This document shows, piece by piece, positions 9,736-62,412 of a DNA stretch of 64,000 bases. The stretch's first letter is position 1. The number at the start of each line of letters is the position of its first letter. The notes beneath the pieces were generated by a model that searched no databases, was not told the origin of the DNA, and was given only the letters and a program-made list of their open reading frames with translations. The DNA is from a virus. Both the position numbers and the translations under genes were made by a program. The stretch lies in IMG/VR virus record IMGVR_UViG_3300043424_000108, positions 17,370 through 81,369 of that record, one strand, 5' to 3'.

Positions 9736-11058
9736 TTATTTAAAGCGAATATAAAACGAATAAATCGAATCCGTATCTTTTTCTACTAAATCAAAGGAAA
9801 CTCCTGGGTATCCAGGGCCAAAGTTGTTCATAATCCACTTAGAAGAGCCATACATAGACAATACATTACGGTATCTAAACTTATATGCTTGTTGCATACT
9901 CTCAGTATGTAGGTCTCCTTTTACTATAGAGATATTTTTATTCTCTCCTAAGTTATGGTGGTCGATGTACTTATTAAGGAAGTTTTCTGCTTTCTCGTTT
10001 AAGAAAAGGGGAAGACCATGCTTAAGATCTTCCGAATCTTTTCCATGAGTAAAGATAAACGTATGTTTGCCATAGTCAAAATGTTCTAAGAACTTCTCCA
10101 TTATCGTTACCTTGATGAATGGATAAGCTGTGTTTAAGTATAAGTTTAACGCTTGATTAGTAATGTAACCAAAAGAACCTGCATGGTTATCGTTAGTTTG
10201 CATTACTGCGTGGATGTTATTTGCTAAGTTTTTCTCTACTAAAGTGTCGAAGAATCTCTTATGAGCATAAAGGTAAGTCATAAAAGCTTCTTTACTGTCC
10301 ATATTCTGAGGTAACTGGTGACCACCTCTAGTAGTGTAGCCATTCCAACCATCTAAAGAATCTCCTAAGTCACAAATAAACAAGTCTTGTAGTCTTCCAT
10401 AAGTCCTAACTTGCTTCTCTATCTCTTCTAGAGTTCTATTCATCCTTTCTTCGAAGACATTCTCATTGTATTCGTTACCATAAAGAGCAGTAGGATGTGT
10501 AAGTGCACCTACATGTTTGTCACTCATGTATACAAATAAGCCTCTATTAGTGCTTACAAGGGCTTTCTTAGGTGTTGGATATACATTGATGCCAGACTCT
10601 AAGAAAACTTCTCTTAGAATGCTTTCTATGTCGTCATTAAAAGTATCCTCAGGCTTTATATGAGCAAATAAGGCTGACACTAGCCAGCCTGAACTCTTTT
10701 CTTTACTCCAATATTGAACTAACTTCCACTTAGTAGTGTCTATCTTGTGTATCTTAACTATCTCTTCAGGAGATCTAGGTTGTTCGGATACTAGTTTAGA
10801 TACTTCTAACGTACCTTTTTCTAGGTTTTCATTATAGGTACTTACAGAATCGGAATTAGATTGAGAATTATCTGGATAAGCATCCTCTCTTATAAGTTTA
10901 GCTACGGCTGTTCTTTTTAAGTCACGAACTTTTTTGCCTCTTAACTCGTTACTTAGTTCTGGGCAGAAGTTAAAACGGATAGCAACTTCAACAGCTGTCT
11001 CAGTTGTGTTTGGATTATCCATATAGTGACGGATAATCTGTTTAGAGATTGGCATCAT
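9736..11058 (-). CDS. Calcineurin-like metallophosphoesterase
   Basis: SDKHVG, LGDSLDG, NDNH, THG and GDLH metal-binding motifs. Confidence 0.85.
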   Translation of the reverse strand: MMPISKQIIRHYMDNPNTTETAVEVAIRFNFCPELSNELRGKKVRDLKRTAVAKLIREDAYPDNSQSNSDSVSTYNENLEKGTLEVSKLVSEQPRSPEEIVKIHKIDTTKWKLVQYWSKEKSSGWLVSALFAHIKPEDTFNDDIESILREVFLESGINVYPTPKKALVSTNRGLFVYMSDKHVGALTHPTALYGNEYNENVFEERMNRTLEEIEKQVRTYGRLQDLFICDLGDSLDGWNGYTTRGGHQLPQNMDSKEAFMTYLYAHKRFFDTLVEKNLANNIHAVMQTNDNHAGSFGYITNQALNLYLNTAYPFIKVTIMEKFLEHFDYGKHTFIFTHGKDSEDLKHGLPLFLNEKAENFLNKYIDHHNLGENKNISIVKGDLHTESMQQAYKFRYRNVLSMYGSSKWIMNNFGPGYPGVSFDLVEKDTDSIYSFYIRFK

Positions 11059-57302: not shown

Positions 57303-59312
57303 TTAATAACGGAAGGGAGATGATGTAGTACGAAATAGAGAGTTCCCTTTCTTCTCTCTAAAGTATGCTTGCATTCTAGTGTCTTGACTTGCATCAGATA
57401 CAATTACCTGAGTGTTCAATGATTTAGCCATTGCCAATGTTAAACCAAAAGATATAACTCGGTCAACATTTAACTTAGGTGTGAACTTAATTAATTCCTT
57501 AATCAGTACAGGGTCCAATATTCTAGTCACTCCTAGACGTTCTTTAACTATGTTTCCATCTGCGTCTCTTTCTATTTCTACTACTTCGGTAATGTACTCA
57601 ATGATTAGGGACATTAGATAGTTTTTAATATCCTTAGTCATGTGAATACCGTAGTCACGATTAACTGTAGAGTTAGGGTGAATATCGTTCAAAAATCTAG
57701 GCGTCTTTTCAAGTACTCTAGGAGACTCGTTTTTATCTACACAGTGTTGAATAAAACCGTAGTCCATGTTTTCACAAAGAGTCTTAGCATTATAATACTT
57801 AAGAAGCATCTTAGTAGTCTCATACCAAGTCTCAATCTTCTTAGGACGACCTGTGTAACAAGCAACAACCATATTCTGCCACCCTTCTCCGTTTAAGTTG
57901 TGGACCCTTTTGTAAATATAAGTAGACCCCAAAGAAGTTGAGTAGTGAGCTTGTGATTGTTTGTATGGATCCGTTCCTGCTGTATAAAGGCCATAGGGAG
58001 CATCTGACAGAGGATATTCCCAAATCTGTACGCAACCCTCAATGTCGTCTGTTGGCTTCACTGGGAACGTTGTAACGGCTTTCTTATCTGTAAACTTGTG
58101 TCTAATAGTTCCGTCAGATCCTGTATACAACTCTACGTTATCAGCTGCAATCTCTTGGGCTGTTAGTTTCTGTAATTGTTCTTGAAGCAAATCAACTGGA
58201 AAGATGTTCTGAGATAACTCCAAGAAACACTCCTCATGAGTTAGTGGGTAGTACATTACTTCTTTCAAGTAAGTCTCTAATCCACTAGACTTTTTAATTT
58301 GTTCTCTAGACTTAAGGATCTGATCTTTTCCTTTCTCTTCGTCCGCTACCCAGATCTTAATTAAATCTAACTCAGATTGATCTTCCTTACCTAAGTAAAG
58401 ACCTAAAGACTTTTCTTCTTTTGGTACTTTTAAAGAACGAGTTCCTGGAATAAACAATCCATAAGACTTTCCTGACTCATTAGATTCTACAGGAAGAAAG
58501 TTATAGGCTTCTGGGTTATTGAAAAGCTCCTCTAGGTCAGCAGCCTTGCTCATATCTCCAGATGTACCAATTACAAAAGGAGAACAACGCCATCCATAAG
58601 GACTATCAAAACACGGAGTAGTTGCCGCTAGACAACTAAGAATCTTTCCTTTTCCTCCTTCTTCCAAAAGAAAAGAAGATAGAGTAAGACCTGCCGCAGC
58701 TTCCGTATTGTTACCTTCATCAAAGTTCCTGACGTGAAACTTAGACCACTCATTACGAGCATTAGTCTTCTTGTCTTTAAATCCTAAAGTTACCTGCTTC
58801 TTCCAGTCATCCTCAATACGAGGAAATCTAAAATAGTCAGGAAGATTCCTAAGACCTAAGTCTACATAGTCTGTGATTACTTTTAAGTCAGGCTGGTTAA
58901 GGGCAGAAATAAGGTTATCAGATCCTCTTTGTGTTACAGCTTTGTGAGCCATGTAGGAAGAAGTAAGAACTGACTTAGATATACGTCTAGATCCTACCAT
59001 AACAACTCCTTTCTTACCGTCTTCATGATTCTCCGCTTTGTTAATGGTTTCATCTACATCTAAGTAAGTGTCCCACAACTGAGGTTTATCCAGTTTACGA
59101 ACCTGACGCTTGCCTATCATAGTGTCCACATAAATGGACCAGTAGTTTAAGTGCCAGTAGATAAAAGGAGAAAAATAGAATCCGTTAATAGTTACACCCT
59201 CTGTAATCTTTTTGTCTTCGTTTTCCCAGAACGCAGTATACTCCTCTGAACCATTATCAGGGAGATTACGTACGTTAATAAGAAATTCAGGACTGTCTAG
59301 ATTTGGATACAT
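57303..59312 (-). CDS. terL: Terminase large subunit
   Basis: Walker A-like GSRRISKS, Walker B LLEEGG, IGTSG, nuclease GTDPY and NVDR. Confidence 0.92.
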   Translation of the reverse strand: MYPNLDSPEFLINVRNLPDNGSEEYTAFWENEDKKITEGVTINGFYFSPFIYWHLNYWSIYVDTMIGKRQVRKLDKPQLWDTYLDVDETINKAENHEDGKKGVVMVGSRRISKSVLTSSYMAHKAVTQRGSDNLISALNQPDLKVITDYVDLGLRNLPDYFRFPRIEDDWKKQVTLGFKDKKTNARNEWSKFHVRNFDEGNNTEAAAGLTLSSFLLEEGGKGKILSCLAATTPCFDSPYGWRCSPFVIGTSGDMSKAADLEELFNNPEAYNFLPVESNESGKSYGLFIPGTRSLKVPKEEKSLGLYLGKEDQSELDLIKIWVADEEKGKDQILKSREQIKKSSGLETYLKEVMYYPLTHEECFLELSQNIFPVDLLQEQLQKLTAQEIAADNVELYTGSDGTIRHKFTDKKAVTTFPVKPTDDIEGCVQIWEYPLSDAPYGLYTAGTDPYKQSQAHYSTSLGSTYIYKRVHNLNGEGWQNMVVACYTGRPKKIETWYETTKMLLKYYNAKTLCENMDYGFIQHCVDKNESPRVLEKTPRFLNDIHPNSTVNRDYGIHMTKDIKNYLMSLIIEYITEVVEIERDADGNIVKERLGVTRILDPVLIKELIKFTPKLNVDRVISFGLTLAMAKSLNTQVIVSDASQDTRMQAYFREKKGNSLFRTTSSPFRY

Positions 59313-60332: not shown

Positions 60333-60774
60333 ATAGGTTTTTGTGGTTTTGTTTTTGTCTTATTAATTCTCTGTCCATGTAATCCACTACTACGTCTGTG
60401 TATAGTTTCTTGCTCTTTCCTCTTTCATATCTTTCTTCGAAAAGTCTAAGCCACTCTTTGAGCATATAATAATTGTTATATCCTCTGAGTGCTGTACAGT
60501 CTTCTCTAGACTCTTGGGTAATCAGGTACTCAGACTTAATCTTAGTAGCAATGATCTTAATTGCTTTGTTAGGATTAAATACAAGTACTCCTAAGCCAGA
60601 CATTCGTACTTTAACAGTGGGAAGGTCTCGTATGTCTTCTATCGTCTTCTTCAAGTACCACTCATAGATAGTACTTACTTGGTCGATAGTCATATCATTT
60701 TCCTTTGCAACTTCTGAGTAAGCTGCGTAGGTTTTTATTTCAATGCCTTCATACCTGTCTTTTATCTTCCTCAT
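60232..60774 (-). CDS. HU/IHF-like DNA-binding protein
   Basis: EVA.E......V..I......I.......VRMSGLG.L. Confidence 0.55.
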   Translation of the reverse strand: MRKIKDRYEGIEIKTYAAYSEVAKENDMTIDQVSTIYEWYLKKTIEDIRDLPTVKVRMSGLGVLVFNPNKAIKIIATKIKSEYLITQESREDCTALRGYNNYYMLKEWLRLFEERYERGKSKKLYTDVVVDYMDRELIRQKQNHKNLYESLQRVHGPEPEGSEEFEQSLGGSSNEDSESI

Positions 60775-61127
60775 ACTGCTACTGCACTCTCTGCCTTATT
60801 CTCAGTTACTCCGTTACCTGTTGAAAGAACCAATGTGAGTGTAACACCTTGCTTGCTAGTAGGACACAGTCTTGGGTTGACTATGTTTTTTTCTAAGATG
60901 CCCATCTTTCTTAATCTAGTAATTCCATTAGAGATTACCTGAATTGATGTGTTAAACTCACCAGCGATTCTTTCTTTTACTTCTTTGTCTAAAGTGCCGT
61001 AGTAGGAACTATGGGCTAATATACTAGTGTATAGATCTGATAATCTATACCCTGCAAGTCTAAGCAATACATCAATATATGCCTGATGTAACTTAACTCC
61101 TTCTTCATATCTACGTGCTACTTTCAT
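60771..61127 (-). CDS. Winged-helix/HTH protein
   Basis: Start moved to MKVARR; IA.EFNTS...ISN.ITRLRKMGIL...VNP. Confidence 0.6.
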   Translation of the reverse strand: MKVARRYEEGVKLHQAYIDVLLRLAGYRLSDLYTSILAHSSYYGTLDKEVKERIAGEFNTSIQVISNGITRLRKMGILEKNIVNPRLCPTSKQGVTLTLVLSTGNGVTENKAESAVAV

Positions 61128-61151
61128 TGGTTTGGTTTGTTTTTTGCTAAA

Positions 61152-61181
61152 CAAATATACGATTGTAACAAAAAAAGTCAA
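61152..61181 (-). promoter_or_regulatory. Bacteroidota-type promoter heading the packaging/structural arm
   Basis: TTG(ACT)-N19-TATATTTG. Confidence 0.75.
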
Positions 61182-61312
61182 GTTAAATGTTAAGTCTAGA
61201 CAGGTAATTAATATCAAATGTTACATGTGTTAACTCAATTTGTAACTTAAATAATTATTTTAGGTTATATATAGAATTAGACAAACACTATAGACAAAAC
61301 TTTATTTAAACC

Positions 61313-61320
61313 TATATTTG
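61313..61320 (+). promoter_or_regulatory. Divergent TAnnTTTG promoter element
   Basis: TATATTTG 18 nt before the ATG at 61339; TAGACA about 19 nt upstream. Confidence 0.6.
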
Positions 61321-61338
61321 TATTAAACAATTACTGCT

Positions 61339-61611
61339 ATGTCGATGGAAAAAGTTAAAAAGCCAACCTCAGAGGAACTGTTCGAACTCTTCCTTTTAGC
61401 CTTACAGGATGAAGAGGTCAAATTAGCAGGAGACATAGGTGGATTCAAGGATGCCCTTTATCAAGGATTCAAAGATTACACCTATAGAAAGAAGTATACA
61501 GAAGAGATGCTCTTCGATTATATTGACTATGCTCTAGAATCTATTCTAGGAGATGATCAACCTATGCAACAAACAGACTATACTATGGGTCAGAATGTAG
61601 CTGGACTCTAA
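61339..61611 (+). CDS. Small acidic hypothetical protein
   Basis: 90 aa, own promoter, opposite strand to neighbours. Confidence 0.65.
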   Translation: MSMEKVKKPTSEELFELFLLALQDEEVKLAGDIGGFKDALYQGFKDYTYRKKYTEEMLFDYIDYALESILGDDQPMQQTDYTMGQNVAGL

Positions 61612-61672
61612 GTTAAGAAAGAATTCTTTCACAATTTTTCCACAGAGACATCTACTTATCTGTAAGTCGCTT

Positions 61673-61680
61673 TATCTTTG
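61673..61680 (+). promoter_or_regulatory. TAnnTTTG promoter element with no downstream ORF
   Basis: TATCTTTG immediately before the structured region. Confidence 0.55.
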
Positions 61681-61684
61681 ATCC

Positions 61685-61958
61685 CCCGACACCATTTCTT
61701 AATGTTCGCAGACGAGGATTAAAAAGTAATCTGCTAGAAGTTGGATAGTATGAGTAGCCCTCAGAGGTGAAAAGAGGTTTCTCCGATAGTGTCAAAATGT
61801 TCTAATGAAGTTTGCAGTGCTCTGACCTACAAGTAATAGACCGTAGGCAATAAGTGGACAGAACAGAGACTTAGCTCCGAGAGCTATTTGGTTAAAAACT
61901 GCTGCAATATAAGTTAGAATAGAAAGTCAAAATAGACTACTTCTCAGAATGAGAAGGA
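61685..61958 (+). ncRNA. Candidate structured non-coding RNA
   Basis: No ORF of 60 aa or more; about nine nested complementary segments; starts just after a -7 element. Confidence 0.55.
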
Positions 61959-61965
61959 ACAAAAA

Positions 61966-62412
61966 CTATTTCAAATTCTCAAATCCATTCTTGAAAGACT
62001 TCTCCAATGCCTTAGAGTAAGCTTTTCTGTTATGAGGAATACCTTCTACAGAAACAAACATAGCATTAACATAGACAGTCTTTTTAGCCTCTCCGATAAC
62101 AATTACTCCATTTAGATTTATCTCAGTGATTACAATATAGTCTCTCTTGAGAAACTGTAACCCTACGATATTTAAGAGTTCTTCAGGCATAGCGATGGAT
62201 TTGATTGTTCCTGAAATAGGACTGCCCTCATTACATAATTGGTATTTTGATGCTGCTATTTCTTCTAGAGTTGTTTGTGCTCCAAAGATTATAGGTCTTC
62301 CTCCTACCTCTGTTACAGAAGCAATTGATGTTACAGTGTCAACTTTGTAGCATTGAGCACTCAGAGAAGTCATCATAGTGACTAGAAAGCAAAGTATAAA
62401 TAGTTTTTTCAT
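61966..62412 (-). CDS. Exported protein with Sec signal peptide
   Basis: MKKLFILCFLVTMMTSLSA/Q signal with Gln at +1. Confidence 0.7.
   Translation of the reverse strand: MKKLFILCFLVTMMTSLSAQCYKVDTVTSIASVTEVGGRPIIFGAQTTLEEIAASKYQLCNEGSPISGTIKSIAMPEELLNIVGLQFLKRDYIVITEINLNGVIVIGEAKKTVYVNAMFVSVEGIPHNRKAYSKALEKSFKNGFENLK

Follow-up and report, generated by a model that had tools for sequence, protein, structure and literature searches.

What does a long ORF-poor gap encode when two genes converge on it? The gap in question is 354 nt long (positions 61612-61965) and lies in a 64,000-nt stretch of viral DNA, referred to here as the window, which comprises bases 17370-81369 of the 81-kb IMG/VR virus record IMGVR_UViG_3300043424_000108, estimated to be 69% complete. 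A plus-strand open reading frame (ORF, 61339-61611) and a minus-strand ORF (61966-62412) converge there. A first reading, made from the letters only and called the sequence-only reading below, placed the gap correctly at ~350 nt and proposed that it holds a multi-stem noncoding RNA with its own promoter and elements resembling a group I ribozyme. Comparison of homologues shows that the plus strand encodes an RNA of two domains and ten helices, P1-P10. This RNA is probably the product of a free-standing plus-strand gene that runs from 61688 to ~61921-61960, and it probably acts in its own right as a folded molecule.

Two covarying domains on the plus strand

Homologues were gathered from viral and metagenome contigs, as the sequence-only reading had advised, and alignment A2 holds 34 distinct full-length sequences that fall into ~five lineages. 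Domain 1 (61688-61793, plus strand) is a four-way junction of 23 pairs, 99.7% paired, with a score of 138 bits for its model, R2. It consists of P1 (GACAC/GUGUC, 61688-92/61789-93), P2 (CAUU/AAUG, 61693-96/61701-04), P3 (GCAGA/UCUGC, 61708-12/61730-34), P4 (GUUGGA/UCCGAU, 61740-45/61782-87) and P5 (GCC/GGU, 61757-59/61766-68). The 17-nt loop of P3 (17-20 nt across relatives) always begins GAGG. P5 is flanked by AGUA (61753-56) and GAA (61769-71), both invariant in 34/34 rows. An AAAA linker (61794-61797), with A or G in the first place and the others invariant, leads into domain 2 (61798-61921; 32 pairs, 93.8% paired; R1 score 167 bits). This domain contains P6 (61798-806/61913-21, including UUCUAA/UUAGAA), P7 (61812-18/61901-07, including UUGCAG/CUGCAA), P8 (CUCUG/CAGAG, 61820-24/61864-68), P9 (CCUAC/GUAGG, 61826-30/61843-47) and P10 (UAGCUC/GAGCUA, 61872-77/61881-86), the last of which differs in length among relatives. 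The most conserved single-stranded tract, CAAUAAGUGGACAGAA, followed by the 3' strand of P8 and ACU, occupies 61848-61871, and 61848-61863 are 16 consecutive columns that are invariant in all 34 rows.

Many of these pairings had been drawn from the single sequence. The five named for domain 2 and P3 of domain 1 are supported on the 34 homologues. The outer pairing proposed for domain 1 (61688/61793) holds for its first five base pairs, GACAC/GUGUC, and not for the next three bases, which pair locally as P2. A proposed CCUC/GAGG helix had to be given up: with the near GAGG the loop would be only 1 nt, and the far GAGG is UUGG in 13 of the 34 rows. P5 fits instead.

The fold is carried by covariation. 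Both sides change in 8 of the 23 pairs of domain 1 and 13 of the 32 pairs of domain 2 (21/55 in total). P3 is compensated to GUAGG/CCUGC and ACCUG/CAGGU, P7 to UUACAG/CUGUAA, UGUAG/CUACA and UAAAG/CUUUA, P8 to CUCUA/UAGAG and CCCUG/CAGGG, and P9 to CCUGG/CCAGG. None of 500 shuffles attains the observed pairing, both-side changes or covariation score in either domain, a result that holds for four of the five measures in both domains, and slid controls are only 23-47% paired for domain 1 and 26-42% for domain 2. The pairing figures of outer P6 and of P10 are lowered by MAFFT, which sets the L117 group one column off register there. For the divergent L117 copy, minimum-energy folding of domain 2 recovers the same helices P6-P10. 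Among paired cells there are 170 G.U versus 14 A.C, and the structure therefore forms on the plus strand only. Single-nucleotide indels and hairpins of variable length occur inside the conserved region.

The RNA is also under stronger constraint than its surroundings. The core is 95, 94, 83, 80 and 76% identical to that of L019, L013, L039, L036 and L117, respectively; the corresponding DNA identities of the neighbouring 90-aa ORF (61339-61611) are 74, 72, 75, 76 and 59%. The core is better conserved than both flanking genes.

An all-against-all column scan revealed no additional helix that stood up to inspection and no covarying long-range pairing that connects the invariant strands. A candidate helix between J3/4 and P10 was rejected: it overlaps P3 and P10 and is broken in L083. 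A contact between the P5 loop and P10, up to 13 bp in L013-type copies, was rejected as a conserved feature because it is absent in four copies (L015, L036, L083 and L117); P10 itself is a covarying perfect hairpin. In the internal loop between P4 and P5, blocks 61746-61751 and 61773-61777 switch together, AGUAU occurring with AGAGG and UGUGA with UUGGU. The two blocks are not complementary; they could reflect a tertiary contact or a single recombination tract.

The collection began with 46 IMG/VR loci gathered through two flanking proteins. By blastn the core of the gap is present in 34 of these neighbouring loci, from query position 77 (61688) to ~347-349 (61958-61960), in agreement with the limits of the element given by the sequence-only reading. 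No core was found by blastn in the other 12 (L020-L031), whose homologue of the 148-aa minus-strand protein is only ~50% identical, and R1, R2 and an nhmmer profile likewise found nothing in this sample. Scanning IMG/VR for an exact 18-mer yielded 33 stretches, 29 with the element, and a 19-mer scan of metagenome contigs gave 25, of which 23 match it. A gapped pattern turned up 28 new stretches, of which three, L117, L133 and L108, are divergent members. The motif scans combined yielded 32 IMG/VR contigs, and each of the 32 stretches returned by a final degenerate scan had been collected previously. Two copies were left out of alignment A2: L085, where a contig end cuts the element, and L090, which carries an insert. 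Neither the element nor its flanks had a DNA match among INPHARED phage records, and R1 had no match in a sample taken near the terminase gene of Leptolyngbya phage Lbo-JY46.

Some motif matches were set aside as chance. The 18-mer GGCAATAAGTGGACAGAA also occurs in coding-like sequence of L061, L064, L071 and L078, viral contigs that are related to one another and otherwise unrelated; these have no profile match and were rejected as family members, which calls for caution with motif scans. Among 185,579 species genomes a single stretch was found; it lies in coding-like sequence of a Flavobacteriales metagenome-assembled genome (MAG) and is due to chance.

Promoter-like box, ends and cassette

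The plus-strand promoter-like -7 box TATCTTTG (61673-61680) matches TAnnTT(T/C)G and also TAnnTTTG, the Bacteroidota -7 promoter consensus. Its letters T, A, T, T and G are invariant in 34/34 rows amid variable flanks: the spacing to P1 is 4-7 variable nt, and sequence farther upstream cannot be aligned across lineages. The motif is frequent in the window (95 sites versus 71 expected), and the evidence is hence the conservation of the box rather than its presence. On this evidence the proposal that the RNA has its own promoter is supported to the extent of a conserved promoter-like box. Similar boxes precede the 90-aa ORF (TATATTTG, 61313-61320) and a divergent minus-strand operon (61159-61152).

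Two tandem T(T/C)CACA words, TCTTTCACA and TTTTCCACA, which resemble DnaA boxes, lie on the plus strand at 61625-61644, 30-50 nt upstream of the promoter box. Similar word pairs occur in the main, L039 and L036 lineages and not in the L117 lineage; of 22 loci checked, 3 match the strict DnaA-box consensus. The words are possibly an operator. They could also be taken, together with the position of the element ~0.5 kb upstream of the packaging operon and of its bacterial relatives at the edge of a chromosomal island (see below), as marks of a signal that acts at the DNA level, such as a replication origin or a packaging site. A DNA signal is very unlikely. The G.U to A.C ratio of 170:14 shows that a single strand folds, what is conserved is compensatory pairing rather than duplex words, the promoter box keeps a fixed short distance, and the cumulative GC skew has no turning point at the element.

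The RNA is ~250 nt long, with a putative 3' end at ~61921-61960. The lineages diverge after P6 and the conserved part ends there, apart from an invariant GAAGGA. The two hairpins that the sequence-only reading saw in the variable plus-strand tail (61922-61960), AGUC/GACU (61925-38) and CUUCUCA/UGAGAAG (61940-56), do exist, though they are kept only in the window's own lineage; the second (61940-61956) scores as a terminator of the convergent minus-strand gene. In L117 a plus-strand hairpin and a T run follow immediately after domain 2. GAAGGA (61953-61958) is invariant in 34/34 rows, even though both the hairpin before it and the gene after it vary from lineage to lineage. The word looks Shine-Dalgarno-like; no conserved start codon follows it.

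Of the five runs that contain a small part of this DNA, four are recorded as RNA. Contigs from RNA libraries of four studies (three freshwater, one marine) cover the element and are 90-95% alike; the contigs of four runs were aligned at a likeness of at least 85%. X1 (208 nt) covers 61704-61899, X3 (264 nt) covers 61764-62028, and X5 (459 nt) covers 61703-62070. X2 (739 nt) covers 61688-62382 and has a further 35 unaligned letters upstream, which include a promoter-type box. None of the four runs has a contig over 61300-61669, where the 90-aa ORF lies, and the X5 contig starts 2 nt inside P1; such holes in contig cover carry no weight. These contigs establish presence in RNA libraries only: they are assembled, come from relatives, and give neither strand, ends, level nor proof of transcription.

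The acidic 90-aa ORF (61339-61611, plus strand) is the constant upstream partner of the RNA, found directly upstream of it at every locus inspected. Searches of Pfam, PHROG, PDB profiles and the ESM Atlas gave no lead for the protein, its 54 near homologues are all unnamed or 'hypothetical', and tblastn against INPHARED gave no match; its distant protein relatives are P0055-P0067. In the sister phage L022, the only element-free sister in which gene order was inspected, 150 nt separate a 146-aa gene from the next one, which is homologous to the 60771-61217 gene, and the 90-aa ORF and the RNA are both missing. Since the two are missing together, they form an inverted two-gene cassette. This cassette is accessory, sits inverted between the operon for envelope proteins and that for packaging, and is dispensable at the level of the phage clade.

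The genes downstream bear on a different explanation, that the RNA acts in cis, as a leader or riboswitch-like sensor or as a regulated antisense transcript into the convergent envelope operon. In L039 (3678-3968) and L036 (~3715 onward) the convergent 148-aa gene is replaced by a co-directional ORF for a small membrane protein (MNT...). The 96-aa ORF of L039 has no evident TAnnTTTG box of its own, the bacterial relatives of domain 1 lie immediately upstream of small ORFs, and three of the RNA-library contigs extend from the RNA into the convergent gene. Against this, a riboswitch or leader should have a co-directional gene downstream in all members, and L039 and L036 alone show one; it is lacking in the window, in its close relatives and in the L117 lineage. 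The L036 ORF has its own TATATTTG box, and in L117 the hairpin and T run come right after domain 2. The conserved part stops at P6, so that the supposed expression platform differs in each lineage, and no aptamer family matches. Action as a leader or antisense RNA would suit the L039 lineage and the bacterial relatives but does not suit the window; overall it is unlikely. One specific antisense target was considered separately. Letters 61791-61805, in the linker region, are perfectly complementary over 15 nt to 10075-10089, in the mRNA sense of a 440-aa ORF (9736-11058), and the complementarity is retained in five related genomes with G.U-compatible changes. It was rejected as a general function: G152 carries the RNA, but the target gene was not located there.

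For the free-standing gene, then, several points count on the other side. The L039 ORF and the placement of the bacterial relatives, both just mentioned, are easier to reconcile with a cis-acting leader, the acidic partner ORF does not suggest an RNA binder, and no function-bearing homology was found. The RNA-library contigs may contain DNA, and one begins 35 nt ahead of the proposed start and runs through the promoter box. Within the alignment, 'further pair types' are not above shuffles (392 and 258 of 500), P1 and P4 vary on one side only and thus rest on conservation, and ~five lineages mean few independent events, their relatedness inflating the shuffle control. Folding energy, for which the sequence-only reading had set a comparison with shuffles, is no better than theirs for the gap (z = -1.15), the core (z = -0.61) or domain 1 (z = 0.04) and modestly better for domain 2 (z = -2.38); the covarying homologues that it had also looked to were found. 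With such weak z-scores, the case for the RNA rests on covariation. The same z-scores, and a 47-aa minus-strand ORF (61652-61795) that overlaps the RNA region, are what could be said for a non-functional spacer with chance pairings or for an unrecognised small ORF. This is vanishingly improbable and already contradicted by conservation above that of the neighbours, by compensatory changes, and by 1-nt indels and variable-length hairpins.

Known RNA families and candidate functions

The element was compared with the 4227 models of Rfam 15 by cmscan at E up to 10, using 2.5 kb of sequence, the 301-nt element and the L117 copy; the models include RNase P, tmRNA, 6S, SRP, pRNA, GOLLD, ROOL, HEARO, riboswitches and small ribozymes. 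No family was found in any of the three. The best sub-threshold matches, uup at 14 bits (threshold 36.8) and sR35 at 9.4 bits (threshold 60), are local word matches. Full-text literature searches turned up no paper on this RNA. The RNA family is new to the catalogues and papers searched, and in this respect the description of an undescribed multi-stem noncoding RNA proved right.

The link to group I ribozymes fared differently. The RNA shares with the group I introns (RF00028) a size range, multiple helices and occurrence in phages, and GACUU/AAGUC (P7-like) and GCUCU/AGAGC (P3-like), which would suit a free-standing or decayed group I intron or ribozyme, can be drawn in the window. The search against Rfam and the group I models, which had been suggested as a check, gave no match at E up to 10. 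GCUCU/AGAGC is 83.8% paired versus 83.7% in shuffles (297/500 reach the observed value) and breaks in divergent members, and GACUU/AAGUC has no both-side change, remains at shuffle level and breaks in divergent lineages. Both also clash with the covarying P8 and P10 and were rejected. Nor are there exons: the promoter box lies 4-7 nt before P1, the flanking genes converge on the element, and in L022 the neighbours abut without the cassette and no joined gene is left by its absence, so that the remark that no interrupted host gene is evident was correct. The two separately closed domains, a four-way junction and the P6-P10 domain, are a further difference from group I introns.

One relative does recall the homing endonucleases borne by introns. 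In L090 (metagenome contig Ga0114960_10004578, from a lake) P5 is replaced by a 414-nt insert closed by GGGA...UCCC. The insert contains a 126-aa ORF for an endonuclease VII of the HNH type (L090:1567-1980, minus strand, which is the strand of the RNA; PF02945 Endonuclease_7, 1e-24; PHROG endonuclease VII families). The rest of the RNA is intact, with R1 at 162.7 bits and R2 at 60.5 bits on the 5' part. The endonuclease ORF is thus looped out of a peripheral hairpin. It was seen in 1 of 36 distinct copies and is read as a gene for a homing-type endonuclease, lodged in a loop that its highly conserved target can do without. Such an insert alone does not make the RNA an intron, and a group I origin is highly improbable.

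Other structured RNAs of phages offer partial parallels. GOLLD and ROOL are Rfam families of large orphan structured RNAs, ~600-800 nt long, found in phages and prophages. The RNA described here resembles them in its carriage by a mobile element, in independent transcription, in a complex fold with conserved junctions and in a function that is not evident from context; it differs in having no Rfam 15 match, in its length of ~250 nt and in a narrow range of host phages. The pRNA of phi29-type phages is likewise phage-encoded, structured and separately promoted, and the present element lies near a packaging operon. Unlike phi29 pRNA, it has no pRNA match in Rfam and belongs to a crAss-like phage with a large terminase ORF; there is no sign of ring-forming loop-loop pairing, the P5-P10 complementarity that was tested being not conserved. 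PF00078 (reverse transcriptase) and PF05731 (TROVE), sought as the partner proteins of retron or RT-associated and of Ro60-associated RNAs, were not found in the 81-kb record, which at 69% completeness does not prove their absence.

The nearest structural parallel is local. The loop E or sarcin-ricin (bulged-G) motif has the consensus AGUA opposite GAA, the same letters that flank P5, and the bacterial relatives keep GUA-hairpin-GAA. It is a motif and not a family, and here it is proposed from sequence only. Transcribed from its own Bacteroidota-type promoter (61673-61680), the RNA would act in trans as a compactly folded molecule, and its invariant junction strands, together with the loop-E-like platform of AGUA and GAA, would offer a surface to which a host or phage protein binds. 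Invariant unpaired strands, such a platform and variable peripheral hairpins fit a protein-binding surface, and a catalytic core less well. A role as protein-binding scaffold, decoy or regulator can accordingly be offered only tentatively, as a possibility that may well turn out otherwise.

A ribozyme of a new fold, outside group I, is rather unlikely. Long invariant junction strands with variable peripheral hairpins are typical of catalytic or ligand-binding cores, and the RNA has 16 invariant junction columns beside variable hairpins, tolerates a large peripheral insert and is conserved above the neighbouring genes. Yet there is no visible substrate, no signature of a cleavage site and no conserved site of processing, the invariant strands are not linked by covarying long-range pairs, and protein-binding RNAs fit the same pattern. 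Complex folds of ~250 nt with strong covariation are rare finds, and past RNAs of this kind proved to be ribozymes, riboswitches or cores of RNA-protein machines. Aquatic crAss-like phages are abundant; few members of the group are in culture, and next to nothing is known of their RNA biology. The set of sequences and the secondary structure suffice to begin in vitro probing, structure work and pull-downs.

Probable bacterial relatives of domain 1 and the genome setting

A sample of 151 genomes of Bacteroidia, the class of the Flavobacteriales MAG mentioned above, contains no domain 2 by model R1. R2 gave one weak match, in G105, with an E-value of 0.038 per genome, which is not significant over 151 genomes. 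The match lies in an ORF-free stretch of ~450 nt (L151:1501-1950 in G105; also L154, L153, L155 and L156) that 5 of the 58 genomes from a single Bacteroidia family share in conserved form (alignment A7). R2 matches four of the five bacterial copies at 19-35 bits and leaves the G193 copy unmatched. When a sequence profile of the bacterial stretch was searched in reverse against 138 kb, its five best matches were phage domain 1: L117 (E-value 1.9e-4), L133 (4.3e-3), L013 (0.047), L019 (0.087) and the window (0.14). Phage and bacterial sequences have a common order: a compensated P3 whose loop starts UGAGGG, AGA(A/C), P4, GUA-hairpin-GAA, GAGGUUUCUCCG, the 3' strand of P1, and then AAAA(A)UGGUU. 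The bacterial stretch is without P2 and domain 2. It matches no Rfam family, and ARAGORN reported 0 tRNA or tmRNA genes in L151. The bacterial stretch is probably akin to phage domain 1. This probable kin provides a second, genetically tractable setting for study.

In G105 the stretch is located between sodA and a ~9-kb island that ends at glmS. The island contains an 83-aa ORF, an HTH_17/excisionase-like ORF, several unknown ORFs, a resolvase and a large serine recombinase. The G184 copy has on its left a gene that by eye is glyceraldehyde-3-phosphate-dehydrogenase-like, and recombinases were not present in the 12 kb inspected. The domain 1 module seems to belong to mobile or variable DNA. 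A bolder idea is that the RNA is the first member seen of a new class of mobile-element RNA, that domain 1, with which the ~450-nt bacterial stretch begins, is its portable functional module, and that it has a role in the traffic or conflict among phage, island and host. This is improbable on present evidence. If it were true, an island might, for example, copy the RNA of its helper phage or carry a decoy against host defence, or the RNA might be a new catalytic or ribosome-directed one that uses the invariant GAAGGA tail.

The source of the window is an aquatic (lake-water) crAss-like phage. The window encodes ORFs of 4262 and 2146 aa. The large terminase ORF (57303-59312, phrog_6681) has its nearest relatives in Leptolyngbya phage Lbo-JY46 (38%), in Cellulophaga phages and in gut crAss-like phages. 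The 148-aa minus-strand ORF that converges on the RNA (61966-62412) has a signal-peptide-like sequence. ARAGORN found 0 tRNA or tmRNA genes in the 64-kb window. In Lbo-JY46, the nearest cultured relative by terminase, ~20 tRNA genes and a homing endonuclease lie upstream of the packaging operon (L135, 118.7-123.2 kb of the record); at the equivalent position the window has the RNA cassette and no tRNA.

The start of the minus-strand ORF 60771-61217 may need revision. Its listed TTG start (61217) is upstream of the TATATTTG box at 61159-61152, and an ATG at 61127 (MKVARKY...) is the likelier start. The product resembles, by eye, a winged-helix DNA binder and heads the packaging operon.

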